Virus record (IMG/VR): IMGVR_UViG_3300038379_000519
Location: 1-27,131 of that record
Length of the DNA stretch: 27,131 bases
Reading direction: 5' to 3' (one strand)
Source: a virus
Taxonomy: Duplodnaviria; Caudoviricetes
In this document: in pieces, positions 1 to 17,109 of the stretch
How positions within the stretch are numbered: position 1 is the first letter of the stretch
Layout of the letters: each line of letters starts with the position of its first letter
The notes under the pieces: generated by a model
The model's database searches: none
What the model saw: the letters and a program-made list of their open reading frames with translations, nothing else
Told to the model about the DNA's origin: nothing
Translations under genes and position numbers: made by a program

Positions 1-8
1 ACTAGGGC

Positions 9-437
9 GGTGGGCGCGACATGAGTTGGGGAGCAAGGTGCAAGCCGTGATGGTGAAGTAGCGCCCGCGGTGGGGTGGGCGCGACATGAGTTGGGGAGCA
101 AGGTGCAAGAACGGCAAGAGCACGCTACTGGGCACGCTGGTGGGCGCGACATGAGTTGGGGAGCAAGGTGCAAGTGGGCTTGTGGTTTGCCGCAAGCCAC
201 AGGGGTGGGCGCGACATGAGTTGGGGAGCAAGGTGCAAGTGCTGGCCACGAACCACCGGCCGCGGGTGCGGTGGGCGCGACATGAGTTGGGGAGCAAGGT
301 GCAAGCGGGCCGTGGCCGAACCGCCGCGGCGTTCGGGTGGGCGCGACATGAGTTGGGGAGCAAGGTGCAAGTGCGGACGTGAAGCTCGCGGTCCGCGGAC
401 AGGTGGGCGCGACATGAGTTGGGGAGCAAGGTGCAAC
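9..437 (+). CRISPR. CRISPR array A: 7 x 36-nt repeat GGTGGGCGCGACATGAGTTGGGGAGCAAGGTGCAAG, 6 complete spacers of 29-30 nt; probably truncated by the left window edge
   Basis: Repeats at 9, 74, 139, 204, 270, 336, 402. Six are identical and the last ends in C instead of G (trailer-like, suggests + orientation). Unique spacers 45-73, 110-138, 175-203, 240-269, 306-335, 372-401. Confidence 0.95.
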
Positions 438-751
438 TGGAACTACCATGTCTGATTTGCCACGAGCCCGTCGCCTTATCGCGGCGGCGGTTCCTGGCAT
501 TGGTTCGCGCCGGCCGGCGGCCGGTCTGCCGCCGCAACGGCTGTCACCGCTACGCCCGCGAGCGGCGGGGTGCGGCGGAAGACGCGGGGACCGCTCGCGG
601 GTCGGTAGTGCAAGCGCCGACGCACGTTGCGCGCGTGGTGCTGGTGGGCGAGCAGCGTCCGGACAACTGGCCCCACGGATCGCTCGCAAAGGCCCGCGTT
701 CGGCGAATCGTGGCAGGGGGTTGCGGAGACGGGGTCGCAGGGGATGGGTGA
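431..751 (+). CDS. Possible small Cys-containing protein (MQLELPCLICHEPV...VCRRNGCH), starting inside the last repeat of array A
   Basis: GTG at 431 preceded by GGGGAG (421-426) from the repeat. CxxC and CxxxxC pairs in the first 40 codons. The 3' half overlaps the leader of array B, so it may be a remnant. Confidence 0.3.
   Translation: MQLELPCLICHEPVALSRRRFLALVRAGRRPVCRRNGCHRYARERRGAAEDAGTARGSVVQAPTHVARVVLVGEQRPDNWPHGSLAKARVRRIVAGGCGDGVAGDG
555..733 (+). promoter_or_regulatory. Leader of CRISPR array B with tripartite inverted/direct motif
   Basis: Perfect 11-bp inverted repeat CCCGCGAGCGG (555-565) / CCGCTCGCGGG (591-601), plus a third core copy CGCTCGC (681-687) 46 nt before the first repeat. 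Resembles the tripartite motif layout of Cas4-associated (I-C/I-G/V-B-like) leaders. Confidence 0.6.
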
Positions 752-985
752 ACGGGAACGAGGTGCAAGGAGATGACCACGGATGCTGAAGGCAGACCCC
801 GGCCCGAGTCGCAGGGGATGGGTGAACGGGAACGAGGTGCAAGCGTAGCGGCAATGGGTGCGTGACGCTCAACGGCCACGTCGCAGGGGATGGGTGAACG
901 GGAACGAGGTGCAAGAACCGCCAGACGTATGGGCGGATGGAACTGTCGCGGCGCAACGGGTGAATGACTGGGAACGAGGTGCAAG
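734..985 (+). CRISPR. CRISPR array B: 3 identical 36-nt repeats GTCGCAGGGGATGGGTGAACGGGAACGAGGTGCAAG + 1 degenerate terminal repeat; spacers 38, 36, 34 nt
   Basis: Repeats at 734, 808, 880. Degenerate copy at 950-985 has 8 mismatches, all in the first 20 nt, and its last 16 nt are identical. Spacers 770-807, 844-879, 916-949. Confidence 0.9.
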
Positions 986-1031
986 GATAGGGCGTGCTAC
1001 GACGCGAATCCGCCGGAGGGCGATCGACGTG

Positions 1032-1070
1032 AACAAGGCGATGGCCCATCAGGGGCGCCGTCGCTGTTTG
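1032..1070 (+). terminator. Hairpin downstream of array B, possible weak terminator or RNA element
   Basis: GCGATGGC (1038-1045) pairs with GCCGTCGC (1057-1064), extendable by AACA/TGTT, followed by TGTTTG. The U-tract is poor. Confidence 0.25.
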
Positions 1071-1086
1071 ACGGGAAGGACGATTG

Positions 1087-2163
1087 ATGTGGCTCCACTT
1101 GCCGCCGTCTCTTTGTGCAGCGGAACCGGGGGCGTCGACCTCGGAATTGAGTTGGCCTGCGGCCAGGCGATTCGCCCGGTTTTGTACGTGGAAAGGGAAG
1201 CCTACGCGACGGCGGTTCTGGCGCGCCGCATGGAAGAAGGAGCCCTGGCTGCGGCGCCTGTCTGGTCCGACGTCAAGACGCTCTGCTCGCCAGCAGTCCG
1301 CGATTACCTGCGCGTCGCATGTGGCGGAGTCGTGGACCTCGTGTACGGCGGCTACCCTTGCCAGCCGTTCAGCTTCGCCGGCAAGCGCGCTGGCGGCGAC
1401 GATCCACGCCACCTATGGCCCTGGATTGCTCGCGCGGTTGCGGAGTGGCGGCCGGCACTTTGCTTTTTCGAGAACGTGTCGGGACACCTTTCTCTGGGGT
1501 TCCGAGAGGTCGTCGAGGAGCTGGAGTCGCTGGGTTACGAAGTTGCGGCGGGCCTGTTTACGGCGGCGGAAATGGGCGCTCCGCACCGCCGCGAGCGGCT
1601 GTTCATCCTGGCCAGGTCCGTACGGCTTCCAGGCGGGGAACGGGCCGGACGGGAACGAGTTCTCAAAGGAAGCACGCCAGTGGTGCAGCCCGGGGGCGAT
1701 GGGCGGCGGGAGCACGAGCCGGGGTCACGACCGGATCGGCGAACCGTTGCTGAGCGGGCAGGCGTCCCAGTGGCAGACTTCGGCGGCGGCGCAATTCCGC
1801 CATCGACGGCAGGTCGGACAGGAGACGCGGAGCGAGCCGCTTTTGCCGGCGCAGGCCCAGTGGGCGACGCGGAATGGCGGGGCGAGCCTGTCGCACCAGA
1901 CACAGACGGGCCAGATGACGCACTCGCCCTCTATCCGCCAGGACCAGCAGACGCCGCCGGCTGGCGGGCCGTGCTCGGCCGACGCCCCGAAGTTAAACCC
2001 GCTGTTTGTGTCGTGGCTGATGGGCCTGCCGCCGGGCTGGAACACCGTAACCATGCCCTGCGGGCCGCCGGGAACGGGGTCGTCCCGCAGTGTGTGGCGG
2101 CTGCTTTCCTCAGTCTGTTTGCGGCGTTGGTTGAACCTGATAACGAGTGAGCAACACGCATGA
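1087..2163 (+). CDS. Overlapping alternative-frame polypeptide carrying C5-MTase motif IX / target-recognition-like repeats (beta polypeptide)
   Basis: Frame open for 358 codons over the whole MTase gene. Contains W-x-[ST]-x repeats (WCSPGA, WQTSAA, WATRNG) and KLNPLFVSWLMGLPPGW (motif IX), which the alpha frame lacks. True start may be internal. Confidence 0.7.
   Translation: MWLHLPPSLCAAEPGASTSELSWPAARRFARFCTWKGKPTRRRFWRAAWKKEPWLRRLSGPTSRRSARQQSAITCASHVAESWTSCTAATLASRSASPASALAATIHATYGPGLLARLRSGGRHFAFSRTCRDTFLWGSERSSRSWSRWVTKLRRACLRRRKWALRTAASGCSSWPGPYGFQAGNGPDGNEFSKEARQWCSPGAMGGGSTSRGHDRIGEPLLSGQASQWQTSAAAQFRHRRQVGQETRSEPLLPAQAQWATRNGGASLSHQTQTGQMTHSPSIRQDQQTPPAGGPCSADAPKLNPLFVSWLMGLPPGWNTVTMPCGPPGTGSSRSVWRLLSSVCLRRWLNLITSEQHA
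1089..2150 (+). CDS. dcm: DNA (cytosine-5) methyltransferase, catalytic (alpha) polypeptide
   Basis: Motif I SLCSGTGG, motif IV GGYPCQPFS, motif VI FENV, motif VIII HRRERLFILA, motif X LRAAGNGVVP. GTG start at 1089 after SD GGAAGGA. The ORF-track start at 858 runs through array B and is not credible. Confidence 0.9.
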   Translation: MAPLAAVSLCSGTGGVDLGIELACGQAIRPVLYVEREAYATAVLARRMEEGALAAAPVWSDVKTLCSPAVRDYLRVACGGVVDLVYGGYPCQPFSFAGKRAGGDDPRHLWPWIARAVAEWRPALCFFENVSGHLSLGFREVVEELESLGYEVAAGLFTAAEMGAPHRRERLFILARSVRLPGGERAGRERVLKGSTPVVQPGGDGRREHEPGSRPDRRTVAERAGVPVADFGGGAIPPSTAGRTGDAERAAFAGAGPVGDAEWRGEPVAPDTDGPDDALALYPPGPADAAGWRAVLGRRPEVKPAVCVVADGPAAGLEHRNHALRAAGNGVVPQCVAAAFLSLFAALVEPDNE

Positions 2164-2189
2164 GCAACACGCATGAGCAACACGCATGA
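2148..2189 (+). repeat. 13-bp tandem repeat TGAGCAACACGCA x3 + TGA
   Basis: Units at 2148, 2161, 2174. They supply the stop codons of both MTase frames and the ATG of the next gene. Confidence 0.95.
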
Positions 2190-2404
2190 CCGACTTCAAC
2201 GCAATCGAACTATCCCGCCTGACCCAGACCGCGTTCATCGACATTGTCGAGTCGCGGTCCAAGTATCTGCGCCAACTGGAGCAGATCGAGGCGTTGTGCC
2301 GCCGCCACGCCCATCCGGGCTGCAACAGCGGGGCGCATGAACTGGCGATCAAGGTGCTGCGGATTATCCGGGGCGAGAAAGAGAGCGACCATCATGGCGA
2401 TTGA
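2186..2404 (+). CDS. Hypothetical phage protein (72 aa)
   Basis: ATG start, GC3-rich codons, helical-looking sequence. Confidence 0.65.
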   Translation: MTDFNAIELSRLTQTAFIDIVESRSKYLRQLEQIEALCRRHAHPGCNSGAHELAIKVLRIIRGEKESDHHGD

Positions 2405-2479
2405 AGTGACGGAATGATGGCCCACGAAGGTGCAGTGCCTGCGCAGGGGCTTTGTTTCTGCGACCGCCCGCAGCGACAA

Positions 2480-2521
2480 CTACCCTGGTAGCCTTGACTC
2501 TGCGGCCGAAATCCGCATACT
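2480..2521 (+). promoter_or_regulatory. Candidate sigma70-type promoter with upstream palindrome
   Basis: TTGACT (2494-2499)-N16-CATACT (2516-2521) in an intergenic gap. Palindrome CTACC-CT-GGTAG at 2480-2491. Confidence 0.35.
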
Positions 2522-2589
2522 AGGGGCAGCGGGCCGCACGACGCGGCGCCGCGGGGTAGCCGCCAGGGCCGGCGGCATGAGGGCGACGG

Positions 2590-2823
2590 ATGCCTCGGCC
2601 TGCCCGTGTTGACCCACTCTGGGGCCTCGCGGTCCTGCTCCCACTGGTCACGGTGGTAGCGGCCGGGCTCTCTTTTTGGGCCGCCTCGCAGGCCCGCCAG
2701 GCGGCGTCCGCCGCCCTGTCCGCCGCGTCCCGGTGTGCCGACGCGGCCTACCGCCTGCCCCATGAATGCGGCTGCCGGCCCGTCTGCCAGTGCTGCCAGT
2801 GCAGCGACCGGAGGGCCGACTGA
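2590..2823 (+). CDS. Small membrane protein with Cys-rich C-terminus
   Basis: One hydrophobic segment (LWGLAVLLPLVTVVAAGLSFWAA) and the tail ECGCRPVCQCCQC. Stop overlaps the next ATG. Confidence 0.6.
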   Translation: MPRPARVDPLWGLAVLLPLVTVVAAGLSFWAASQARQAASAALSAASRCADAAYRLPHECGCRPVCQCCQCSDRRAD

Positions 2824-3026
2824 TGCGATTCACGGCCCTCTGTCCGACGTGCCGTGGCCGCGGCCACGGCGACTTTCGCGGGGCCGGCGACATGGACCCC
2901 GGTCTCTGCCACACCTGTGAAGGCAGCGGGGCGGTCATCGCGGACGTGGTGGGACCGGCGGCCCAGTTGACGCCCGCGTTGCTGCCGGTGGCCCAACCGA
3001 TCATTGCCACGGCGGAGACCTACTGA
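2823..3026 (+). CDS. Small zinc-finger protein (two DnaJ-like CxxCxGxG motifs)
   Basis: CPTCRGRG and CHTCEGSG. TGATG coupling at both ends. Confidence 0.7.
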   Translation: MRFTALCPTCRGRGHGDFRGAGDMDPGLCHTCEGSGAVIADVVGPAAQLTPALLPVAQPIIATAETY

Positions 3027-4222
3027 TGTCTGCGATGGACCGGTGCACACTGGGACTGATCCTGTGGCTGGGTCTCACGGCGCAAACCCAAGCCCAACTG
3101 GCCTCTCCCGAGGCGGACCGCCTCTACCGGCAGTCGCTGCCGGCCACCGACGATCCGCGGTGGGAGAAAATCTTCCGCGACCCGGCCACGCTGTTTTACA
3201 CGGACGCGGAAATGCCGCCGGCCTACCAGAAGTGGGACGGCGACCTGCGGGGCGTGCATTCGCCGGCCTACAACATCAGCGCCGACGCCAACGAGCAGGC
3301 CAAGGGGCCGGGCCGCGGCGGCAACGGCAACATCGAATTCCCCTGGCGAGCGCCGGGTGGCACGGATGCGGCCCGGAACGTCGCCACCGTCCGCTTCATG
3401 CGGCTGCCGGACCGCGAGGCCGGCGGCGTGTGGCCGGTGGTCTGGTGGCGGGAGCGGATGCGGGGGGCGAATATCGGCGAAGAGCCGGTCTATCGCTGGC
3501 TGTTCCCGCGCGGGACCGTGTTCGGCGAGGTGCTGACGCTGGCCGATTCCAGCGGCGTGCAGCATACGTTCGAGGTGCGGCTGAGAGTCCGCGAGGCGGA
3601 CTACTGGGATGTGCAGATTCTGCGGCCGTTCCCGACGCGGGCTTCGCTCGCCGCACGCCTGCGGGAATTGCAGGTCGAAAATCACGAGGCGTGGATTGCC
3701 AGCCTGGAGCGGCAGCCCGTGGCCCGGCAGACGCTGCGGGACCGCCTGCATCCGATGAGCGCGTTCGCTGAGCGGGCCGGGTCGCAGGCCCTGCCGCCGA
3801 TGAGCGAACGGTTGGCCGCGGAGCTGCTGGACAGCACGCCGTTTGTGAGCAGCGTCGGCGCGGAATGGGGCGAGCCGGACCAGGACGTGTTTGCGCCGAC
3901 CACGGACCAGACGTTCCACCTCGTCCCGCACGGCTATCAGGCCACGTTTTTGGGCACGGACACCGAGAGTTGCCAGGAGTGCCACAAGCACACGCTGCGG
4001 CACGTGGATACCTTCGACGGCCGGCGGGATTGGTATGGCCGGGTCCGCGGCAGCGACGGCATCTTCACGTTCCACCCGTTCGCCCGCGAGAGCATCAGTC
4101 GCAACGGCTCGCCCTTGACCGTGCGGATGAATGCGCGGCTGGAAGCGGCGGGCATCATCGAGCGGTTCGCGGCGGCCCGGCATCCGGCCGACGTCTACCG
4201 CAGGAGAATCGTGCCACAATGA
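3026..4222 (+). CDS. Secreted protein with single CxxCH (c-type haem-binding) motif
   Basis: Signal peptide (LGLILWLGLTAQTQA), CQECH near the C-terminus, 398 aa, strong coding bias. Confidence 0.75.
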   Translation: MSAMDRCTLGLILWLGLTAQTQAQLASPEADRLYRQSLPATDDPRWEKIFRDPATLFYTDAEMPPAYQKWDGDLRGVHSPAYNISADANEQAKGPGRGGNGNIEFPWRAPGGTDAARNVATVRFMRLPDREAGGVWPVVWWRERMRGANIGEEPVYRWLFPRGTVFGEVLTLADSSGVQHTFEVRLRVREADYWDVQILRPFPTRASLAARLRELQVENHEAWIASLERQPVARQTLRDRLHPMSAFAERAGSQALPPMSERLAAELLDSTPFVSSVGAEWGEPDQDVFAPTTDQTFHLVPHGYQATFLGTDTESCQECHKHTLRHVDTFDGRRDWYGRVRGSDGIFTFHPFARESISRNGSPLTVRMNARLEAAGIIERFAAARHPADVYRRRIVPQ

Positions 4223-6877: not shown

Positions 6878-6886
6878 GTGAGACGC

Positions 6887-7324
6887 ATGAAACTCCTGCT
6901 CGTGGAAGATAGCCAGGTTTCGCAGGCCGCGTTCAGCGCGGCCCTGGAGGAGTTCTACCACTCGCAATACCCCACCGTGGAAATTGCCGGCACGCTGGCC
7001 GATGCACACGCGATGGTCCACGCCGCCGACGTGCTGGTGTTGGACCTGACCCTACCGGACGCCGACGCGGACGAGATGATGGCCTTTGCCCGCAAGTGGA
7101 TTCACTTGAAGCCGGTCATCATCATCAGCGGCACGGAGGAGGACCGGTACATTATCGAGGCCGGCGCAATTGGGGCGGGCTTTCTCCGCAAGACGTGCGT
7201 CAGTTGCCAGCAAGCCGAAATGCTGCGGATCGAATTACTGCGGGCGCAAGGGGCGCTCCAAGCCAAACGGGAGAAACGCGAGCTGGTCCACGATTTCATC
7301 CGCGTGCTGGGGAGCCACACTTGA
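6887..7324 (+). CDS. Stand-alone response-regulator receiver (CheY-like) protein
   Basis: KLLLVEDS, DVLVLDLTLPD (phospho-acceptor Asp), PVIIISG, GFLRK. Short helical tail, no output domain. Confidence 0.88.
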   Translation: MKLLLVEDSQVSQAAFSAALEEFYHSQYPTVEIAGTLADAHAMVHAADVLVLDLTLPDADADEMMAFARKWIHLKPVIIISGTEEDRYIIEAGAIGAGFLRKTCVSCQQAEMLRIELLRAQGALQAKREKRELVHDFIRVLGSHT

Positions 7325-7733: not shown

Positions 7734-7874
7734 AACACGGCATGGCCGCCGTTAGGGGGCACGGACGCCCCCGACCTGCCAAGCGCAGGCAACCCCTGTG
7801 CGACGGCGCGACACCTGCGCCGGGGACAACAAGTGGTGTGACGGCCCGGAGAGACGGGCTTGTGTGAGGTGACC

Positions 7875-8318
7875 ATGATCCGCGTGCGGAAGAGAACACG
7901 CACCGAGGTGGCGGCGAACCACGAGGCCCTGCTGACGGCCAGTGTGGCGGAGCTGCGCCTGCCCCAGCGGATCGTGAACTACCTGGAGGAGGCGGGCTAC
8001 CACACCGTGGGCCAGTGCCTGGCGGCCACGCCGGATCAACTGCTGGCGATCCCACTGTTTGGCCGCGGCCTGCTGAGGCAGCTCCAGGAGTGCATCCGCG
8101 AGGTGCTGCGGACCGGCCGGCTGCCCGAGGCCGGGGAGGACGAACCGAGCCGCGCGCCGGCCCCGACGCCGGAGGAAATCCGCGACCGCTGCCGAGCGAT
8201 CCGAGCAGGGTGGCCGGTGAACGACCCCCGGCAACGCAAGGGCGTGGTGCCGCTCGTGCCGCGGCCGGTGCGGATCGCGTTTGACGAACCGCGGCAACAG
8301 GGAGGCCGGCTGCGATGA
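7875..8318 (+). CDS. RNA polymerase alpha-subunit C-terminal domain-like protein
   Basis: VAELRLPQRIVNYLEEAGYHTVGQCLAATPDQLLAIPLFGRGLL aligns without gaps to the alpha-CTD consensus (VDDLELTVRSANCLK...IGDLV...LLKTPNLGKKSL). SD GAGGT. Confidence 0.8.
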   Translation: MIRVRKRTRTEVAANHEALLTASVAELRLPQRIVNYLEEAGYHTVGQCLAATPDQLLAIPLFGRGLLRQLQECIREVLRTGRLPEAGEDEPSRAPAPTPEEIRDRCRAIRAGWPVNDPRQRKGVVPLVPRPVRIAFDEPRQQGGRLR

Positions 8319-8665
8319 GCCGTCCGCTGAGATTGTTCGCGCCGCCAGGCGGCACTGGGGCGGCATGGCGCGGCGAATCGAGCGGCGGCTGCGGGTCGTG
8401 CTGGGCTGCGAGCGGGCGGCCGACCAGGTGGCGGAGTCGAGGTGCTGGGCTGCGAGCGGGCGGCCGACCAGGTGGCGGAGTCGAGGTGCTGGGCGGCCTG
8501 ACCAAGGTGGAGGCCGGGGCGCTGCTGATCGCCGCGGCAATGGCCTCTGCACGCACGGTGGCGAGCCCCGCGGCGTGGCAGGAGATCCCGCACCGGGCGG
8601 CTGCGCTCGCCTGGGAGACGCTGTGCGCCTGCGAGCAGGCCCAGCGGGAGCGGGCAGGGACGTGA
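8315..8665 (+). CDS. Hypothetical protein containing a 44-bp tandem duplication
   Basis: ATGA overlap. The C-terminal half (GLTKVEAGALLIAAAMA...) looks protein-like and the middle does not. Confidence 0.4.
   Translation: MSRPLRLFAPPGGTGAAWRGESSGGCGSCWAASGRPTRWRSRGAGLRAGGRPGGGVEVLGGLTKVEAGALLIAAAMASARTVASPAAWQEIPHRAAALAWETLCACEQAQRERAGT
8398..8494 (+). repeat. Exact 44-bp tandem duplication (2.2 copies)
   Basis: GTGCTGGGCTGCGAGCGGGCGGCCGACCAGGTGGCGGAGTCGAG at 8398 and 8442, partial at 8486. Confidence 0.95.
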
Positions 8666-8671
8666 GCGGGA

Positions 8672-8748
8672 CTGCCAAGTTGGCAGACTTTAGAAAACGG
8701 TTTGGGTCCTTCCGGCAGTCTGCGACGGCTGGGGGCTTCGGGAACAGC
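8672..8748 (+). other. Candidate cos site (cosQ + cosN) with upstream palindrome
   Basis: GGGTCCT (8704-8710), identical to lambda cosQ, is followed after 17 bp by the symmetric element GCTG-N13-CAGC (8728-8748). Palindrome CTGCCAA-G-TTGGCAG at 8672-8686. Intergenic, upstream of the packaging operon. Confidence 0.6.
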
Positions 8749-8774
8749 AGGAAATCACACACAGATAGCGTGAC

Positions 8775-10043
8775 ATGCTGATCCGCGACCGAATCCGAGA
8801 ACTGCGCCGCGTACGCGCCTGCGACCTGCGACCCAACTCGAAGAACTGGCGGACGCACCCGCAGGCGCAGCAGGACGCCCTGCGTGGCGTGCTGGCCGAG
8901 ATCGGCTACGCGGACGCCTTGATTGTCAGAGAGCTGCCAGACGGTACGCTCCAGTTGCTCGACGGTCATCTGCGGGCCGAGACGACGCCCGAGGCTGACG
9001 TGCCGGTTCTGGTGGTGGACCTGACCGAAGCCGAGGCGGACAAGGTGCTGGCCACGCTCGACCCGCTGGCGGCGATGGCCGAGGCGGACAAGGGAAAGCT
9101 CGACGCCCTGCTGCGCGATGTGCAGACGGGCAGCGAGGCGCTGGCGGGGATGCTCGCGGACCTGGCGAAGGACAGCGGGATACTTGCTGTGCCCGTCGAG
9201 GATGAAGCGACGGATCCGCCGGTGAATCCGATATCGCTGCCTGGCGATATGTGGCTACTCGGCGATCATCGTTTGTTCTGCGGAGACAGCACGAACCGCG
9301 AAACAGTCTTGAGGCTGCTGGATGGCCGCCGGCCTCAGTTGATGATCGTGGACCCGCCGTTCGACCTTGCGTATTCGCAGTGGGACATCCCGGATTCTTG
9401 CGACGTGCTTGTTGTCTGGGGCAGGGGAGATGAGCGGTTGAAATGGGAGGCGCAGAATCTATGCGGAAAGTACGGCGTGCATGAACTCGTTTACACGGGC
9501 GGTGTGCGTGGGCACGCACGGCCGAGCCTTCCGTGCTGCCTGCATGACGTGGTGCATGTCTGGCGGCGGAAGTGGTGGAAGCAAGAGCAAGAGCAAGAGG
9601 CAATAGACGGCAAGGTGATCCGCGAATGCGGCTGCGCGAAAACAGAGGACGACCGGCCATTTAGCGTGCAAGAACACTGCGGCGGAGTGCTGACTGGCGC
9701 CGGAGCAATGTCGTGGGGCAAGCCGGTTCTGGCGATGGCAATTGCGACGGCGTACGTGCCAGCCGGCTCGCTGATCTACGATCCTTGCGCCGGCAGCGGA
9801 TCGAGTCTCGTAGCCGCACAGCGGCACGGCCGCCGCTGGATCGGCTGCGAGCTACAGCCGCAGTGGGCAGACCTGTGCGTAGCCAGGTGGGAGAAGGAGT
9901 CTGGCCTTCCGGCCACAGTGACCAGGGGCGGCAAGGTCTGGCAAGCACAGGACTTGCGAGATAAAATGACGGCCGCGACGGGTGCGGAAACACCCGTGCG
10001 GCCTGAACACGAGCAAGCTGAAAAGGAGCCTGCCCATGTCTGA
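8775..10043 (+). CDS. ParB-like N-terminal domain + amino (N4/N6) DNA methyltransferase
   Basis: LRPNSKNWRTH...LLDGHLR (ParB/Srx), PGDMWLLGDHRLFCGDST, DPPF catalytic motif, YDPCAGSGSSL SAM motif (beta order). Confidence 0.9.
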   Translation: MLIRDRIRELRRVRACDLRPNSKNWRTHPQAQQDALRGVLAEIGYADALIVRELPDGTLQLLDGHLRAETTPEADVPVLVVDLTEAEADKVLATLDPLAAMAEADKGKLDALLRDVQTGSEALAGMLADLAKDSGILAVPVEDEATDPPVNPISLPGDMWLLGDHRLFCGDSTNRETVLRLLDGRRPQLMIVDPPFDLAYSQWDIPDSCDVLVVWGRGDERLKWEAQNLCGKYGVHELVYTGGVRGHARPSLPCCLHDVVHVWRRKWWKQEQEQEAIDGKVIRECGCAKTEDDRPFSVQEHCGGVLTGAGAMSWGKPVLAMAIATAYVPAGSLIYDPCAGSGSSLVAAQRHGRRWIGCELQPQWADLCVARWEKESGLPATVTRGGKVWQAQDLRDKMTAATGAETPVRPEHEQAEKEPAHV

Positions 10044-10788
10044 GTCTACGATCATTGCCTGGACGGACCACACATTCAACCCCTGGATGGGCTGCGAGAA
10101 GGTGTCCGCCGGGTGCGCACACTGCTATGCGGAAACGCTGACGCGCAACCGCATGGGGCTGCACCTGTGGGGGCCTGGCGGCCGACGGCAGGTCACGAGC
10201 GACGGCAACTGGCGGAAACCGGTCGCGTGGAATCGCGACGCGGAGGAAGCGGGCGAGCCGGCCCGCGTGTTCTGCGCCTCACTGTGCGACGTGTTCGAGG
10301 ATCATCCGACCGCGGAGGCCACCCGCCCGCGGCTCTGGAATCTGATCCGGCAGACTCCGTGGCTGCATTGGCAGTTGCTCTCGAAGCGACCGCAGCGGAT
10401 CGCCGAATGCCTCCCGCGCGACTGGGCGGACGGCTGGCCGAATGTCTGGCTCGGCACGAGCATCGAGGACATGCGGGTCGCTGATCGGGCCGATTGGCTC
10501 CGGGAGATTCCTGCCGTCGTGCGGTTCGTCAGCTACGAGCCGGCTCTTGGTCCACTCAACGCGCTGGACCTTGACGGAATCGACTGGGTGATCCAGGGCG
10601 GCGAGAGCGGGCCAGGATACCGGATGATGGACCTGGATTGGGCGCGGGGGATGCGCGACCGATGCCGCGCCGCCGGCGTTGCCTACTTTTTTAAGCAGTC
10701 CGCTGCGTGGCGGACTGAACTGGGAATCGAATTGGATGGCGAGATCGTCCGCGAGTACCCGACTCCGCGGGCGGTAGTACACGCATAA
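10036..10788 (+). CDS. Phage Gp37/Gp68 family (DUF5131, radical-SAM-like) protein
   Basis: IAWTDHTFNPWMGCEKVSAGCAHCYAE, VFCASLCDVF, RFVSYEPALG, DWVIQGGESG, FFKQ. SD AAGGAG. Confidence 0.93.
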   Translation: MSESTIIAWTDHTFNPWMGCEKVSAGCAHCYAETLTRNRMGLHLWGPGGRRQVTSDGNWRKPVAWNRDAEEAGEPARVFCASLCDVFEDHPTAEATRPRLWNLIRQTPWLHWQLLSKRPQRIAECLPRDWADGWPNVWLGTSIEDMRVADRADWLREIPAVVRFVSYEPALGPLNALDLDGIDWVIQGGESGPGYRMMDLDWARGMRDRCRAAGVAYFFKQSAAWRTELGIELDGEIVREYPTPRAVVHA

Positions 10789-10795
10789 GTAGCTC

Positions 10796-12976
10796 GTGCC
10801 GACATTAGACGACATCCGCAAGGCGAAACGCGAGCTGGACCGCAAGGTCCGCGAGGCCGAGCGGCTGGCCGGCGTCAAGACGTCCTACCGCGACCGGCAA
10901 TCCGACATCCTGACGGCCAAGCGGCGGGCCGAGCGGATCGTCATGGTCCCGGCCTGTGCGGACCCCGAGCGCCGGGCGCGACTGGAGGCCGACGACATCG
11001 CTTGGCTGATGTGGTACTTTGCGCCGGAGAGCGGCTGCGAGACGCCGTTCACTTACGATTTCACGTTTCAGCAGCGGGAGATGATCGCGGCGATTCGCCA
11101 TGCCATCGAGTACGGCGGCGACCAGTCGCTGGCCGCGTCACGCGGCGAAGGCAAAACCACGCTCTTCGAGCGGATGCTGCTCAAGTACACGCTCACGGGC
11201 CGGATCAAGTTCTCCGTGCTGCTCCAGGCAACCGGGGCCGCAGCGGCCGATTCCCTGGAGGCGATCAAGTGGGAGTGCGAAACAAACGACCGGCTACACG
11301 CGGACTATCCCGAGGTGTGCGTGCCGGTCCGGGCGCTGGAAAACACGCCGCAGCGGGCACACACGCAGCTTGCCAGCGGTAATCGACCGGACAACGGGCA
11401 AGCCTTCGAGGCGGCGACAACAAAGTTCTTATGGTGTGGGCAGGAGATTACCTTTCCCAAGGTTCCCGGCTCGCTGTCAGCCGGGGCCATTATCGCAACG
11501 CGCGGCCTCGATTCCGCGATTCGCGGGATCAAGAAGCGTGGCCGGCGGCCGGACGTGGTCGGCATTGACGATCCCGACACGGAGGAAACGGCCCGCAGCC
11601 AGGAGCAGTCCCAAAAGCTTGAAGACCGCATCGACAGAACCATCGCGGCGCTAGGCGGCCAGAAACGGCGGGTGGCTCGCGTGATGCTGACGACGCTCCA
11701 GAATCGCACCTGTGTCAGCTATCGGTTCACGGATTCGCAGGCCAAGCCGTCGTGGCATCCGCGGCGGTTCAAGTTTCTCGTTCGCCGGCCGGACCGGATG
11801 GACTTGTGGGGCCGGTACGTGGAGCTGCGGAAGGAGGACTGGCGGAACGTGAGCGCGGGTGTGCCAACGGCTGCGGCCCACGAGTTCTACGTGCTGCACC
11901 GAGAGGAAATGGACGCCGGCGCCGAGGTCGCCAATCCGAACCGCTACACGCAGGGCGAGCTATCGGCGCTCCAGTTCTACTTCGACGAGGTTGCGCGGAT
12001 CGGCCAAGAGGCAGTCGCCACCGAGTACGATAACGACCCGCCGGACGTGGTGGAGTTGTCGGAGATGCTCTCGGCCTCCCAAATCGCCGCCAAGCTCAAC
12101 GGATATCCGCGCGGCCTGGTCCCGAGCGACGCCACACACGTCACGGCATTCATCGACGTTCAGCAGCGGTTGCTGTACTACGCGGTGTGCGCGTGGCGGC
12201 AGGACTTCACGGGCTACGTGATCGAGTACGGCGCCTGGCCGAAACAGGACCGCAGCTATTTCACCCTGGGTGATGCTGCGCCCGCGATTCCAGATGTCTG
12301 CCGCGGTGGGCTGGAGGCGGGAATTCACGCGGCACTGGACTCCCTAACGTCGGACATCTGCGGGCGGCCGTGGCCCGTGGACGGTGGCGGCGAGCAAAAG
12401 ATCAGTCGCTGTCTGATCGACGCTAACTGGGGCCAGAGCACCAGTACGGTTTACGCGTTCGTGCGGCAGTCGCTGCATGCCGCAGTGTTGCTTCCGACGC
12501 ATGGCCGCGGCGTCAGGGCCTCGCAATCGCCGATCATGCTGTGGCAGAAAAAGCAGGGCGAGCAAGTCGGACTGAATTGGCGGGTGCGGCGCACCACCGA
12601 GAGCCGAGCTCCGGTGCGGCATGGAATTTACGATACGAATTTCTGGAAGAGCTTTCTGCATCAACGGCTCTACGTGCCGCTGGGTGGTTCGGGCTGCCTG
12701 TCGCTGTTCAAGGCGGAGCCTGCGGCGCATCGCATGCTGGCCGATCACCTGCATGCAGAGTACCCAGTTTCTGTCGAAAGCCTCGGTCGCAAGGTCAGCG
12801 AGTGGCAGGTACGGCCGAATCACCCGGATAACCACTGGTTCGACTGCCTGGTGGGCTGCGCCGTGGCGGCTTCTATCGAGGGTTGTTCCCTGAAAGAGTC
12901 CGCCGAGGTCCGCGAGCCGCGGCGGGAACGCAAGACGCTGGCGGAAATGGCGGCACAAGCGAGGGCTGGTCGATGA
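10796..12976 (+). CDS. Terminase large subunit (GpA-type nuclease domain)
   Basis: Walker A ASRGEGKTT, Walker B VGIDDPDT, nuclease FIDVQ, LIDANWG, DNHWFDCLV. Position upstream of portal. Confidence 0.9.
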   Translation: MPTLDDIRKAKRELDRKVREAERLAGVKTSYRDRQSDILTAKRRAERIVMVPACADPERRARLEADDIAWLMWYFAPESGCETPFTYDFTFQQREMIAAIRHAIEYGGDQSLAASRGEGKTTLFERMLLKYTLTGRIKFSVLLQATGAAAADSLEAIKWECETNDRLHADYPEVCVPVRALENTPQRAHTQLASGNRPDNGQAFEAATTKFLWCGQEITFPKVPGSLSAGAIIATRGLDSAIRGIKKRGRRPDVVGIDDPDTEETARSQEQSQKLEDRIDRTIAALGGQKRRVARVMLTTLQNRTCVSYRFTDSQAKPSWHPRRFKFLVRRPDRMDLWGRYVELRKEDWRNVSAGVPTAAAHEFYVLHREEMDAGAEVANPNRYTQGELSALQFYFDEVARIGQEAVATEYDNDPPDVVELSEMLSASQIAAKLNGYPRGLVPSDATHVTAFIDVQQRLLYYAVCAWRQDFTGYVIEYGAWPKQDRSYFTLGDAAPAIPDVCRGGLEAGIHAALDSLTSDICGRPWPVDGGGEQKISRCLIDANWGQSTSTVYAFVRQSLHAAVLLPTHGRGVRASQSPIMLWQKKQGEQVGLNWRVRRTTESRAPVRHGIYDTNFWKSFLHQRLYVPLGGSGCLSLFKAEPAAHRMLADHLHAEYPVSVESLGRKVSEWQVRPNHPDNHWFDCLVGCAVAASIEGCSLKESAEVREPRRERKTLAEMAAQARAGR

Positions 12977-13269
12977 GCGGCAAGGAGGCCAAGACGTTGG
13001 CCGAGCTGGCGGCGATTGCCGCGGGCCGGCAGCCGCAGCAGATCGCGGGCAAGCCGGCGGACGTTTGTCCCTACTGCGGCTGCGCGATGTTCGCCCACGG
13101 CACGCGGCAGGGCGAGCAGATGACGTTCCGCTACGTCCATTGCCGGAATCCGCAGTGCGGCCGGCGGTTCATGTCGAAGCAACCTCCGGCCACGCTGGTG
13201 CGTGAAATCTCCGAACTACCGTCCAGTTCTGGACAGTCCGCCTTACAGGTGTTCCGCGGGTCCGCCTAA
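12973..13269 (+). CDS. Ogr/Delta-like zinc-ribbon protein
   Basis: CPYCG...RYVHCRNPQCGRRF. ATGA overlap. Confidence 0.7.
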   Translation: MSGKEAKTLAELAAIAAGRQPQQIAGKPADVCPYCGCAMFAHGTRQGEQMTFRYVHCRNPQCGRRFMSKQPPATLVREISELPSSSGQSALQVFRGSA

Positions 13270-13278
13270 CGTGCGGGC

Positions 13279-13482
13279 ATGCCCGACGCGGACGACATTG
13301 CGGACGCCATTGCGGACGCCGCCACCACGCCCAAAAGCGCGACGGTCGACGGCAATAACGTCACTGCGCGCAGCGTGGACGAACTGGCGCAGGCTCAGGC
13401 GCTCGCCTCGCAGCGGGCACTCACCAGCGTGGCCCAGTTGTTCGGCCACCGCACGCGGCTCGTGGCGGGGCCGCGGCAATGA
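13279..13482 (+). CDS. gpW-like head completion protein
   Basis: 67 aa between terminase and portal, helix-hairpin (SATVDGNNVT)-helix pattern. Confidence 0.7.
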   Translation: MPDADDIADAIADAATTPKSATVDGNNVTARSVDELAQAQALASQRALTSVAQLFGHRTRLVAGPRQ

Positions 13483-15056
13483 GCAAGTCCCGCCCGGCCA
13501 TCCTCGACTCCAGCGGCAAGCCGTTTCCGGCTGCGAGTCGCCGCCGCGAGATGGCCGACATGGGCCGCGGCCGTCGCCCGCGAATCCGCGGCAGCTACGA
13601 CGCCGCGCAGGACCTGCAAGACACCTCGAATCACTGGGCTAGTGCAGACAGCCACGACGCCGACTCGGCGAACAGCCGCGCGGTCCGCGCGAAGCTGGTC
13701 CCCCGCGCTCGCTACGAAATCCAGAACAACGGATACAGCGACGGCATCGCCACGACCTATGCCGACGACCTGGTGGGGATCGGCCCGCAACTGCGGATGC
13801 AGACCAGTTCGGACGCCTTCAATCGCCTGGTCGAGCAGCAATGGTTCCTGTGGACCAAGGCCGTGCAGTTCCGCCGCAAGCTGTGGTGCGCGGCGCACGC
13901 GAAGCATAGCGACGGCGAGTCCATCGGCGTGATCCGCCGCAACCCCGGCGTCACGCATCCCGTGCCGCTGGACTGGTGCCTCTACGAAACGGAGCAGTGT
14001 CAGACGCCGTTCCTGCCGTTCGGCGAGCGTGGCTACATCGACGGGATCAAGTTCGACCAGTTCGGCAACGCCGTCTGGTACGACATCCTCGAAGAACACC
14101 CCGGCAGTAACCACCGGGCCAACTACAACCTCACGCCCGAGCGCGTGCCGGCCGAGTTCGTGACGCATTGGTTCAAGCTGCGGCGCCCCGGACAGCACCG
14201 CGGCATCCCCGAGACGACGAGCACGCTCAATCTTGGCGCGGCCTCCCGTCGCTGGCGTGAATCGACGCTCGCGCACGCGGAGATGATCGCCAAGCTGACG
14301 GTCCTGCTCAAGTCGCTGATGGAGCCGGCGGCAGAGGACGCCGACCCCGTGACGGCGATGAGCCAGTTGGAGTTGTTGGCCGGCACGATGATCGCGTTGC
14401 CGAACACGGTAGAGCCCGTGCAACTGGACGCGAAGCAGCCGGCGGCCACCTACTCGATGTTCCACAAGGCGCTGGTGAACGAGCAGGCCCGGCCGAAGTC
14501 GATGCCCTACAACAAGGCCGCTTGCGACAGCAGCGAATACAACTACGCCTCCGGCCGGCTCGACCACCAGACCTACAACAAGACGCTGGACGTCGAGCGG
14601 GCCGACTGCGACGAGTTGGTGTTGGACAAGGTGTTCGCGCAGTGGTTCATGTTCGCGGTCCGCCGCTTCCAGTGGCTGGGCGGTGAGCCTACTTCACTGG
14701 CCAACGTGATGCGGCTGCACGCCTGGGATTGGCCCAAGCATGGCGTGGTGGACATCGAGGCCGAGGCCAACGCGAACCAGACCAAATTGCAAAGCGGGCA
14801 GGTGTTCCTGCACGCGATCTACACCGACGCGGGGCAGGACTTCGAGGATGAGCTGGAGAAGGCCGCCATCAGCTACGGCGTCACGCCGGACGTGCTGCGC
14901 AAGCGGTTGCTGGATGTGATCCTCCCGCCCGTGCAACAGGCCGCGCCGCCGCCTGCGCCGAAGTCGCCGACCAACGGCGATGCGGCGGTGGACGGGTTCG
15001 CCGCGACGCTGCGCTGCAACGGACACGCCAACGGAGTGCATGTCAATGGCGGCTAA
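13479..15056 (+). CDS. Portal protein, lambda family
   Basis: YDAA, RARYEIQNNGY, DGIKFDQFG, RPGQHRGIP, YNYASGR. 525 aa. Confidence 0.92.
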   Translation: MSKSRPAILDSSGKPFPAASRRREMADMGRGRRPRIRGSYDAAQDLQDTSNHWASADSHDADSANSRAVRAKLVPRARYEIQNNGYSDGIATTYADDLVGIGPQLRMQTSSDAFNRLVEQQWFLWTKAVQFRRKLWCAAHAKHSDGESIGVIRRNPGVTHPVPLDWCLYETEQCQTPFLPFGERGYIDGIKFDQFGNAVWYDILEEHPGSNHRANYNLTPERVPAEFVTHWFKLRRPGQHRGIPETTSTLNLGAASRRWRESTLAHAEMIAKLTVLLKSLMEPAAEDADPVTAMSQLELLAGTMIALPNTVEPVQLDAKQPAATYSMFHKALVNEQARPKSMPYNKAACDSSEYNYASGRLDHQTYNKTLDVERADCDELVLDKVFAQWFMFAVRRFQWLGGEPTSLANVMRLHAWDWPKHGVVDIEAEANANQTKLQSGQVFLHAIYTDAGQDFEDELEKAAISYGVTPDVLRKRLLDVILPPVQQAAPPPAPKSPTNGDAAVDGFAATLRCNGHANGVHVNGG

Positions 15057-17109
15057 AAAGCAACAGCTGATTGCGATGTCGGCGCCGTGCTCCGTGGTCG
15101 CCGCCGAGGGCGACGGCAAGGGGCCGCGGCGATTTACCGCCGAGTTCTACACGGGCGGCCTCCTGCGACTCGACGGCTGGGATTTGCCGGTCGTGGTGGA
15201 CCTGGACGGGCTCAAGGAGAGCAACGTCCTGGTGGCCAACCTGGACCACGACCGGACAAAGCGGGTCGGCAATTTCGCGGTGGCGAACGACAAGCGGCGG
15301 CTGGTGGCCAGCGGCACGGCGACGGCGCGGACCGCGGCCCGCGATGAGGTCGTGGGGAGCGCCGAAGACGGCTACCAGTGGCAGGCCAGCCTGGAAGTCC
15401 AGCCGGAGAAGGTTGAGGCCGTCAAGGCCGGCAAGACGGTCGAGGTCAACGGCCAATCTTTCACGGGGCCGCTGTACGTGGCCCGCGTCGGGACGCTCAA
15501 GGGACTGGCGTTCGTCTCGCACGGTGCGGACGACAACACGACCGTTTCGATTGCGGCCGCGGCCGCTTCTTACAAGGGACAAAAGATGGACCCGAAGATT
15601 CAGGCGTGGGCCGAAGAAATGGGCGTGGACGTGGCCAACGCTTCGCCCGAACAACTCGCCAACATCGAGGCCAACTACGCCGGCCGCAACGGCTCGAAGC
15701 CTGCCGCGGCCAAGCCGTCCAATCCTTTCGAGGCCCGCAAGATCGAGGCCAAGCGACGGCAGGGTATCCGCGACGTCGCGGATAAGTGGCTCGATGGCCG
15801 CGAAAACGATCTGGAGTTTATCCAGGGAATAGAGAAGCTCTGCGATCACGCCGTCGAGGCCGGAATGAGCGTCTCGGACTTCCGCGCGGAGTTGCTAGAA
15901 GCGATGGTTCCGGAGAGCCGGACCGTGCCGGCCCCCCGCGTCCGCAACAACGGCCTGACGCCGCGGCTGCTGGAGGCGGCGCTGTGCCAGACGGGCCGGC
16001 TGGCCGACCTGGAAAAGCACTTCACCGACCAGGAATTACAGGCTGCGCACACCCGCTTCCGCGACGGGCTGAGCCTGAATCAGTTCCTGCTGTTGACCGC
16101 CGAGGCCAACGGCTACCGCGGCGACTCCGCGTCCCGCGTGACGATCGAGGTGCAGCGGGCCGCGTTCGGCCTGACGCCGAACTACCGCGCGATCCACGCG
16201 GCCGGCGGCGGTTTCTCGACCATCGACGTCGCCAACATCGTGGCGGCCACGGCCAACAAGTTCCTGCACGAAGGATGGATGGCGATTGACCAGACGCCGC
16301 TGCGAATCGCGGCGATCCGGCCGGTCTCCAACTTCCAGCAGGTCACGACCGTGAGCCTCACGGGCGCCCTCCAGTTCGAGAAGCTGGGCGCGGCCGGCGA
16401 GATCAAGCACGGCACGCTCGACGACATGACCTACACGAACCAGGCCGACACTTACGCGGCGATGCTCGCCATCACGCGCAAGGACATCATCAACGACAAC
16501 CTGGGCGCGTTGACCGCCGTGCCGCGGCGGCTGGGTCGCGGCGGTGCGCTCAAGCTGAATGACATCTTCTGGACCGAGTTCCTCGGTCTGGTGTCGGCCA
16601 GTTTCTTCGCCTCGGGCAACAGCAACATCAACACGGGCGTGGCGGACATGACGCTCGGAGGCCTGGCGGCCACCGAGACGATCTTCATGGAACAGACGGA
16701 CCCGGACGGGAAGCCTCTGGGCATCTCGCCCGCGATCATCCTGGTGCCGCCGGCCCTGAAGGCCACGGCCGTGGCCTTGATGGATCCGCAGGGCCTGTTG
16801 ATTACCGGGGCCTCGGCGACGATCCCCAACGCCAACGTGTTCCGCGGGCGGTTCCGCGTGGAGTCCTCGCCGTACATCAGCAACAGCAGCTACACCGGCT
16901 ACACCTCGGTGGGCTGGTGGATGCTGGCCGATCCCAACGACGTGCCGGTGATCGAGATCGCGGCGCTCAATGGCCGCGTGGAGCCGGTGGTGGAAACGGC
17001 GGACGCCGACTTCAACGTGCTGGGCGTGCAGATGCGCGGGTACAGCGACATCGGCGTGAACGAGCAAGAGTACCGCGGCGGCGTGTACGCCGACGGCGGC
17101 GCGTCCTAA
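15046..17109 (+). CDS. Prohead protease-scaffold-major capsid fusion protein
   Basis: N-terminal protease-like region (FYTGG, LDHD, WQASLE, AFVSHGADDNT). C-terminal capsid (GEIKHGT, ITRKDIINDNLGA, DPDGKPLGISP). Internal SD AAGGGA + ATG at 15586. Confidence 0.88.
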   Translation: MAAKKQQLIAMSAPCSVVAAEGDGKGPRRFTAEFYTGGLLRLDGWDLPVVVDLDGLKESNVLVANLDHDRTKRVGNFAVANDKRRLVASGTATARTAARDEVVGSAEDGYQWQASLEVQPEKVEAVKAGKTVEVNGQSFTGPLYVARVGTLKGLAFVSHGADDNTTVSIAAAAASYKGQKMDPKIQAWAEEMGVDVANASPEQLANIEANYAGRNGSKPAAAKPSNPFEARKIEAKRRQGIRDVADKWLDGRENDLEFIQGIEKLCDHAVEAGMSVSDFRAELLEAMVPESRTVPAPRVRNNGLTPRLLEAALCQTGRLADLEKHFTDQELQAAHTRFRDGLSLNQFLLLTAEANGYRGDSASRVTIEVQRAAFGLTPNYRAIHAAGGGFSTIDVANIVAATANKFLHEGWMAIDQTPLRIAAIRPVSNFQQVTTVSLTGALQFEKLGAAGEIKHGTLDDMTYTNQADTYAAMLAITRKDIINDNLGALTAVPRRLGRGGALKLNDIFWTEFLGLVSASFFASGNSNINTGVADMTLGGLAATETIFMEQTDPDGKPLGISPAIILVPPALKATAVALMDPQGLLITGASATIPNANVFRGRFRVESSPYISNSSYTGYTSVGWWMLADPNDVPVIEIAALNGRVEPVVETADADFNVLGVQMRGYSDIGVNEQEYRGGVYADGGAS

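Follow-up and report, generated by a model that had tools for sequence, protein, structure and literature searches.

Viral mini-CRISPR arrays without cas genes are known from the portogloboviruses SPV1 and SPV2, in which, according to the excerpts of the report that we draw on, they are directed against sibling viruses and against one pRN1-like integrated plasmid (Medvedeva et al. 2019, PMC6858448). In the Lalka phages of Thermus, a Cas12r-CRISPR has spacers that match integrative elements, and every one of these elements encodes both a helicase and an archaeo-eukaryotic primase-polymerase; the authors of the preprint interpret this as mobile elements competing with one another, with satellites as possible targets (bioRxiv 10.64898/2026.04.20.719267). 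The introduction of the same preprint also recounts that the type I-F CRISPR-Cas of the vibriophage ICP1 acts against PLE satellites (bioRxiv 10.64898/2026.04.20.719267).

Here we describe what may be a further case of this known strategy, the use of CRISPR guides in conflicts between mobile elements. The case concerns array A, a CRISPR array at the left end of a virus record of 27,131 bp, the whole of which was analysed and is referred to below as the window. As far as the excerpts of the SPV1 and SPV2 report describe those viruses (PMC6858448), our locus resembles theirs in that an array, as assembled, lies in viral sequence without cas genes and is preceded by non-coding sequence, in the presumed use of host Cas proteins and in spacers that would be aimed at other mobile elements; spacer content varies between closely related genomes of SPV1 and SPV2, as that of array A may. 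It differs in scale, with one or two spacers there (PMC6858448) and at least six and three in the arrays described here. It differs further in having two arrays with different repeats, a bacterial host and no host array with the same repeat found, and in that the targets are known at the amino-acid level only, with at least four spacers on one gene family.

With the Lalka phages the locus shares phage array spacers that bear on elements with a primase-polymerase and a helicase (bioRxiv 10.64898/2026.04.20.719267). In those phages, however, the effector gene adjoins the array and both protospacers and a PAM were found, whereas here neither a cas gene nor a protospacer was found; their protospacers are also spread over the elements and, in the passages of the preprint used here, are not reported as concentrated in the replicase (bioRxiv 10.64898/2026.04.20.719267). 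ICP1, as that preprint's introduction presents it, would be alike in having a phage-borne CRISPR with two arrays directed against a rival mobile element, but in our case 27 kb of sequence contain no cas genes and no satellite match was found.

Two CRISPR arrays and the adjoining phage genes

Array A (positions 9–437, + strand) consists of seven 36-nt repeats, from a first copy at 9–44 to a last copy at 402–437, with six spacers of 29–30 nt between them, and is truncated by the 5' end of the contig. Six of the repeats are identical and the terminal one has a single change, its final base being C, not G. The last two spacers, A5 (306–335) and A6 (372–401), are 30 nt each, with one repeat between them, and are not assigned to a strand. 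Array A then gives way to 296 non-coding bases (438–733, + strand), made up of its trailer and of what is presumed to be the leader of array B. Array B (734–985, + strand) has four 36-nt repeats, three of them identical and the fourth degenerate at 78% identity, and spacers of 38, 36 and 34 nt. In both arrays, near-identical direct repeats of constant length alternate with unique spacers of similar length, as is expected of CRISPR.

The repeats of the two arrays differ and have a common 3' end, GGGA.C.AGGTGCAAG, which suggests that one processing or effector system serves both repeat families. The common part is limited to the last ~16 nt, and the spacers of array B are longer and more variable (34–38 nt). 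We infer that both arrays are transcribed from left to right, since their degenerate repeats lie at their right ends and all genes of the window are on the + strand. A promoter and terminator scan of positions 1–3100 returned none near the arrays. The repeats are essentially unstructured, a tracrRNA-like anti-repeat is absent from the window, and Rfam gave no match in the window.

Beyond the arrays the contig is tailed-phage sequence, of which it represents a fragment, as a packaging and head module at 10796–17106 (+ strand) shows; this module encodes a GpA-type large terminase, a lambda-type portal and a protease-capsid fusion. A C-5 cytosine DNA methyltransferase is the product of the first gene that follows the arrays (858–2147, + strand), and this gene has their orientation; further products include a nuclease, a receiver-domain protein, a ParB-methylase, a DUF5131 protein and a tape measure protein. 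GC content is uniform along the window, at 0.67–0.68. The replication genes of the carrier phage itself, including its replicase, are not on the contig, and there is no primase in the window. The idea that the spacers of array A control the carrier's own primase was considered and, for this reason, set aside.

Some other features of the contig are recorded here in their own right. A 13-bp unit (ACGCATGAGCAAC-like) is present in about four tandem copies at 2143–2194, where the methylase gene ends and shortly ahead of a small ORF (2187–2406). A perfect 44-bp tandem duplication at 8398–8485 lies within the ORF at 8281–8778; as 44 is not a multiple of three, the frame would shift if both copies were translated. 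A stand-alone response-regulator receiver domain and a protein like the C-terminal domain of RNA polymerase alpha are encoded at 6878–7321 and 7860–8315, and it is possible that they are tools to redirect host transcription. The DUF5131 protein (9982–10785), between the ParB-methylase and the terminase, matches PDC-M41B and PDC-M30B in PADLOC, which are candidate defence-system models. The ORF at 3026–4219 has no relatives in viral_contigs.

Within the window, upstream of which the array runs off the contig, no Cas family was recognized among 40 ORFs compared with Pfam and PHROGs or among 16 ORFs compared with PADLOC and NCBIfam. Exact copies of repeats A and B had no match in viral_contigs. 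A pattern of three copies of the common 3' repeat end returned 124 loci in genome_contigs, which holds species-representative genomes, and 42 in viral_contigs; we rejected these as relatives of repeats A and B, as they were mostly coding tandem repeats or other array families. None of the 124 genome loci was like repeat A or B, the best of them agreeing at 26/36 nt in a sequence that is not an array, and 401 Planctomycetota genomes contained no array with this repeat end. The genomes searched, which are a sample and do not prove absence, showed no host array with a repeat or leader like those of array A or B. Large CRISPR arrays with 30-nt repeats were seen in Ruminococcus and Oscillospiraceae genomes (L001, L014, L023, L054, L071 and L078), their repeats ending in GGTGCAAG on one strand and ATTGAAAC on the other. 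We also set aside the Ruminococcus arrays that have the motif opposite ATTGAAAC-type repeats, as the 8-mer that they have in common with the window repeats is probably coincidental.

One public run contains this phage, the freshwater metagenome X1, with 87% of the sampled words of positions 1–3000; no RNA run is listed. Its contigs cover positions 402–763 and spacer B2 at 100% identity, and phage sequence of 402–3000 is present. Spacers A1–A6 are uncovered in these contigs, for which ~77% of the run was read and from which low-depth words are dropped. Repeat A occurs in a single X1 contig, of 2145 nt, once in full and with the same trailer after it. Preceding this repeat are 1755 nt without further repeats, bounded by a 22-nt repeat-like end with one mismatch, a segment that may represent either a gene, conceivably a cas gene, or an element that has inserted here. 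Two readings present themselves. Sister genomes may differ at this locus, one having the array and the other a different segment in its stead; or the join between array A and the phage in the window may be an assembly artefact that runs through the 36-nt repeat. The first-pass annotation had taken the array to be phage-borne. What stands of this is that array A is contiguous with phage genes in the window, a link that consists of one assembly and passes through a repeat, but the lack of cas genes and the X1 phage sequence without A1–A6 tell against it.

Spacers A1–A4 and the primase-helicase family

The first four spacers read as conserved peptides of replication proteins. Spacer A1 (45–73, − strand, 29 nt) gives HRGRYFTIT, corresponding to the E-x-Y-x-x-G-R-Y-F-T-I-T-G motif of NrS-1-type AEP primase-polymerases, and A2 (110–138, + strand, 29 nt) gives NGKSTLLGT(L), the Walker A loop of D5/P4-type SF3 helicases. 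A3 (175–203, − strand, 29 nt) reads LWLAANHKP, which is SF3 helicase motif C, and A4 (240–269, + strand, 30 nt) reads LATNHRPRV, a second allele of the same motif. In their frames, A1–A4 have G or C in the third position of 33 of 36 codons (9/9, 8/9, 7/9 and 9/9, read directly), which fits coding DNA from a high-GC source.

We scored the spacers against position-specific profiles of two sets, 120 homologues of a D5_N+DUF5906 primase-helicase and 120 NrS-1-type primases, with 3000 random 29/30-mers from positions 1100–27131 of the window, translated in six frames, as controls. With the D5_N+DUF5906 profile, A2, A3 and A4 reached 31.3, 31.8 and 25.3 bits against a control maximum of 17.5 (0/3000 as high). 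The NrS-1-type profile gave A1, A2 and A3 22.3, 20.3 and 25.2 bits, again with 0/3000 controls as high and a control maximum of 18.45; A4 scored 17.5 bits, with 2/3000 controls as high. Spacers A5, A6, B1, B2 and B3 score like controls in both profile sets, and blastn of positions 1–1000 of the window gave them no INPHARED or PLSDB match above chance level. Direct BLOSUM 9-mer matching against 239 homologues ranked the spacers as the profiles did, with poorer separation. Some of the peptides occur exactly in members of the NrS-1-type set: RGRYFTIT of A1 in P0139, with GRYFTIT in 15 of the 120 homologues, and LATNHRP of A4 in P0129.

As an independent check, nucleotide patterns of the spacers with the wobble positions masked matched 12 loci, 11 of which are primase genes matched in frame. 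All five viral loci that match the A1 pattern do so on the motif E-x-Y-x-R-G-R-Y-F/L-T-M/I-T-G, in proteins with Prim-Pol, PriCT_2+AAA_25 or DUF3987 domains. The A2 pattern fell on the Walker A loop of D5_N+DUF5906 proteins at three of four loci, the fourth (L168) being an unrelated glycosyltransferase on a contig with 30% GC, and that of A3 fell on THKLWLAANHKPII of primase-helicases at three of three (L170–L172). The A4 pattern matched no locus in viral_contigs; the best match of this spacer in L166 and L169 (22/30 nt) is at motif C, ~271 nt downstream of the A2 match.

One natural protein, P0088 (845 aa), with NrS-1 HBD, D5_N, DUF5906 and Pox_D5 domains, carries DAGRYFTITG, RNGKSTF and WMAANHKP together. 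Its primase domain aligns with the NrS-1 primase (PDB 6a9w) and with chain 7ola, which the alignment labels only 'DNA primase' and which we take to be the primase-helicase of a staphylococcal pathogenicity island. The target family is therefore best described as one that joins an NrS-1-type primase-polymerase to a D5_N/DUF5906 SF3 helicase (6a9w, 7ola; PF22763, PF08706, PF19263, PF03288), the three motifs of which are matched by the A1–A4 peptides, although the AEP motif of A1 is not confined to this architecture. At the amino-acid level, these comparisons show A1–A4 to derive from a predicted NrS-1-type AEP primase fused to a D5_N/SF3 helicase.

Much of what the first-pass annotation had proposed for these spacers is borne out. 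Its translations are right (A1 in frame 2 of the reverse complement, A2 in the sense direction, A3 in the reverse complement and A4 in the sense direction), as is its naming of the three motifs, with GRYFTITG aligning with 6a9w and 7ola and all three present in P0088. Its assignment of four spacers to one gene family withstands the comparison with random 29/30-mers, of which 0–2 in 3000 score as high as A1–A4, and agrees with the 11 of 12 wobble loci in primase genes. It had described four consecutive spacers of the array; these are there, but six spacers are visible and the array runs off the 5' end of the contig.

The spacers need not all come from one gene. A2 taken alone is a generic P-loop, its closest PLSDB matches being Walker A sites of ABC transporters (25/27 nt, E 0.3–3). 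Helicases of other types (AAA_25, DUF3987) likewise occur as fusions with the AEP motif of A1, so A1 need not share a source gene with A2–A4. A3 and A4 are indeed, as had been claimed, two alleles of a single motif, motif C, read from opposite strands, and agree at 14/21 nt over their seven common codons (read directly), so that at least two different genes must have been sampled. Judged by their sequence, A1–A4 apparently originate in the primase-helicase genes of two or more different mobile elements with a high GC content. The mixture of strands had also been taken to mean a DNA target. This argument is sound if all four guides are functional: because two of the A1–A4 guides are mRNA-sense whichever way the array is transcribed, DNA and not RNA would be targeted.

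No protospacer with fewer than three mismatches was found in viral_contigs (wobble patterns of A1–A4), metagenome_contigs (A2 only), INPHARED, PLSDB or 30 Planctomycetota primase loci. The best matches in the fetched viral and metagenome loci were 24/29 for A1, 26/29 for A2, 24/29 for A3 and 22/30 for A4, and those in the 30 Planctomycetota primase loci were 25/29, 23/29, 22/29 and 23/30, respectively. At the nucleotide level, blastn of positions 1–1000 of the window against 50,697 INPHARED phage records and 72,556 PLSDB plasmid records returned matches at chance level only (best E 0.08), and the direct-repeat families of the window show no match to a spacer outside the arrays. The broad targeting that had been attributed to the spacers is not supported, as no known homologue matches better than 26/29 nt and motif C needs two separate spacers.

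Host, rival elements and the origin of array A

The phage host is likely a member of the Planctomycetota. All three named relatives of the terminase are from Pirellulales or Anatilimnocola (44–48% identity), and a terminase homologue is present in 42 of 401 sampled Planctomycetota genomes; the protein atlas labels the terminase 'Viruses' only. Homologues of the primase-helicase occur in 49 of 251 sampled Planctomycetota genomes. Five of the seven primase-helicase loci examined (G002, L223, L224, L227 and L228) are prophage-like, with a terminase nearby, and the usual order in these prophages (for example in G002, L223, L224 and L227) is primase-helicase, then HNH and/or methylase, then terminase. 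In G002 (G002:C1:1231071-1239449), the primase, a ParB-methylase and a terminase homologous to that of the window all lie within 8 kb. The window has other small genes at the place that the primase takes in the Planctomycetota prophages. The remaining two loci (L225 and L226) are small islands with a gene for a recombinase or an excisionase-like protein; the 10 kb to each side are devoid of structural genes. In L223 (14218–17097, Planctomycetota genome G065), the large terminase of the prophage has an inserted Hom_end/LAGLIDADG segment and, from its domain content, probably contains an intein.

We infer that the rivals against which the guides would act are mostly related temperate phages, which are likelier than satellites because the replicase usually lies just upstream of the methylase-terminase block in similarly built prophages. 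On the explanation that we prefer, to which we give about even credence, array A is a real array on a cas-less tailed-phage fragment, likely of a Planctomycetota phage, and supplies guides to a DNA-targeting effector against the replicase gene of rivals. A Cas effector encoded by the host or beyond the end of the contig would use the guides of array A and would cut or block the replication gene of rival elements; by this means the phage, or else its host, would likely cut rival phages.

It is somewhat unlikely, in our estimate, that we are instead looking at ordinary host immunity and an assembly join, with array A coming from a bacterial chromosome or other element, its spacers a memory of phages with this replicase, and the two pieces of sequence connected via the solitary phage repeat at 402–437. 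Such a join would agree with the X1 contig, in which a single copy of repeat A stands between 1755 nt of other sequence and the same trailer, and with the lack of cover of A1–A6 in that run, as well as with a window that begins inside array A and has no cas genes. Primed adaptation in type I systems leads to several spacers clustered in one gene, on both strands, and the spacers here are clustered in this manner, within ~1.4 kb of one gene. The assembly, however, is unbroken from A6 via the terminal repeat into the trailer, that repeat is degenerate at its 3' end as the last repeat of a genuine array typically is, and GC content does not change along the window. Array B and the solitary repeat would in any case be CRISPR elements of the same repeat family at the phage locus, and none of the 401 Planctomycetota genomes has such an array. 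The gap in X1 also counts for less given that only ~77% of the run was read and that low-depth words were dropped from its contigs.

The first-pass annotation had favoured an anti-satellite role, in which the guides are set against satellites or small integrative elements that have a P4/D5-type primase-helicase and parasitise this phage. The two small islands without structural genes among the seven Planctomycetota loci (L225 and L226) are of the kind that this would call for, and the primase domain of P0088 matches 7ola, presumably a pathogenicity-island enzyme. ICP1 against PLE and the Lalka phages against integrative elements with a primase-polymerase and a helicase are precedents, to the extent that the preprint passages describe them. 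We nevertheless think this quite unlikely: neither a protospacer nor a satellite was found in the searches made, five of the seven loci are prophage-like with a terminase, and full phages and plasmids use replicases of this family equally. That the repeats are RNA decoys that soak up host Cas proteins, with the spacers as functionless passengers, seems to us highly improbable. Phage-borne solitary repeat units that act as anti-CRISPR RNAs have been described, and arrays without cas genes, together with the solitary repeat in the X1 variant, would suit such a role. A decoy would nevertheless not be expected to have six unique spacers that are uniform in length and of which four derive from one gene family, and the genomes searched yielded no host array whose repeats match.

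Spacer position within the gene and its significance

The focus of array A on a gene is strong, with four of six spacers on one family. Its focus on motifs within that gene is weaker than it appears and is in part ascertainment. In a leave-one-out test with 20 family members, ~25% of 9-residue windows scored above the control maximum, and the probability that at least four of six spacers placed at random in such a gene would be recognisable is ~0.04, or 0.13 for the most conserved member. In conservation, the window matched by A1 ranks in the top 3%, those of A2 and A3 at ~5.5% and that of A4 at 13%. The earlier claims on this point survive in part. That each spacer is centred on an invariant motif agrees with windows in the top 3–13% of conservation, but recognition of about a quarter of all windows makes this partly a matter of ascertainment; that the array was selected for motifs draws on a P of ~0.04, which is suggestive but not decisive. 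The fall of A3 and A4 on one motif in two alleles is an additional oddity that lies outside the P ~0.04 estimate.

Selection for constrained sites is plausible but unproven, and primed adaptation together with ascertainment is a fair alternative to it. Under such selection, spacers on constrained codons would persist longer, with escape restricted to synonymous changes. We also put forward, as a speculation that we consider unlikely, a more specific scheme in which array A would be a hard-wired, multi-allele guide set against the least mutable codons of the replicase, namely the primase active-site motif, Walker A and two alleles of motif C. Escape would then require a change that the replicase cannot afford, selection would act on the position of a spacer within the gene and not only on the element targeted, and the 1.75-kb segment in the sister genome could encode the missing effector. 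In the literature we found no description of spacers stacked on replicase motifs, which is weak evidence that the pattern is unpublished.

What the finding means depends on the origin of the array. If a host array was joined to the phage by the assembler, the finding is one of ordinary immunity. In-frame profile scoring, as this case shows, can place a spacer in a gene family even when its nucleotide sequence has no match. Should the array truly be phage-borne, a Planctomycetota-type phage would join the few viruses known to carry guides against other mobile elements, and would provide an exceptionally clear instance of several guides converging on an essential gene, with two alleles of one motif among their targets. 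The idea would then also become testable that, where there is no adaptation module, guides may be retained preferentially at sites where escape is costly.
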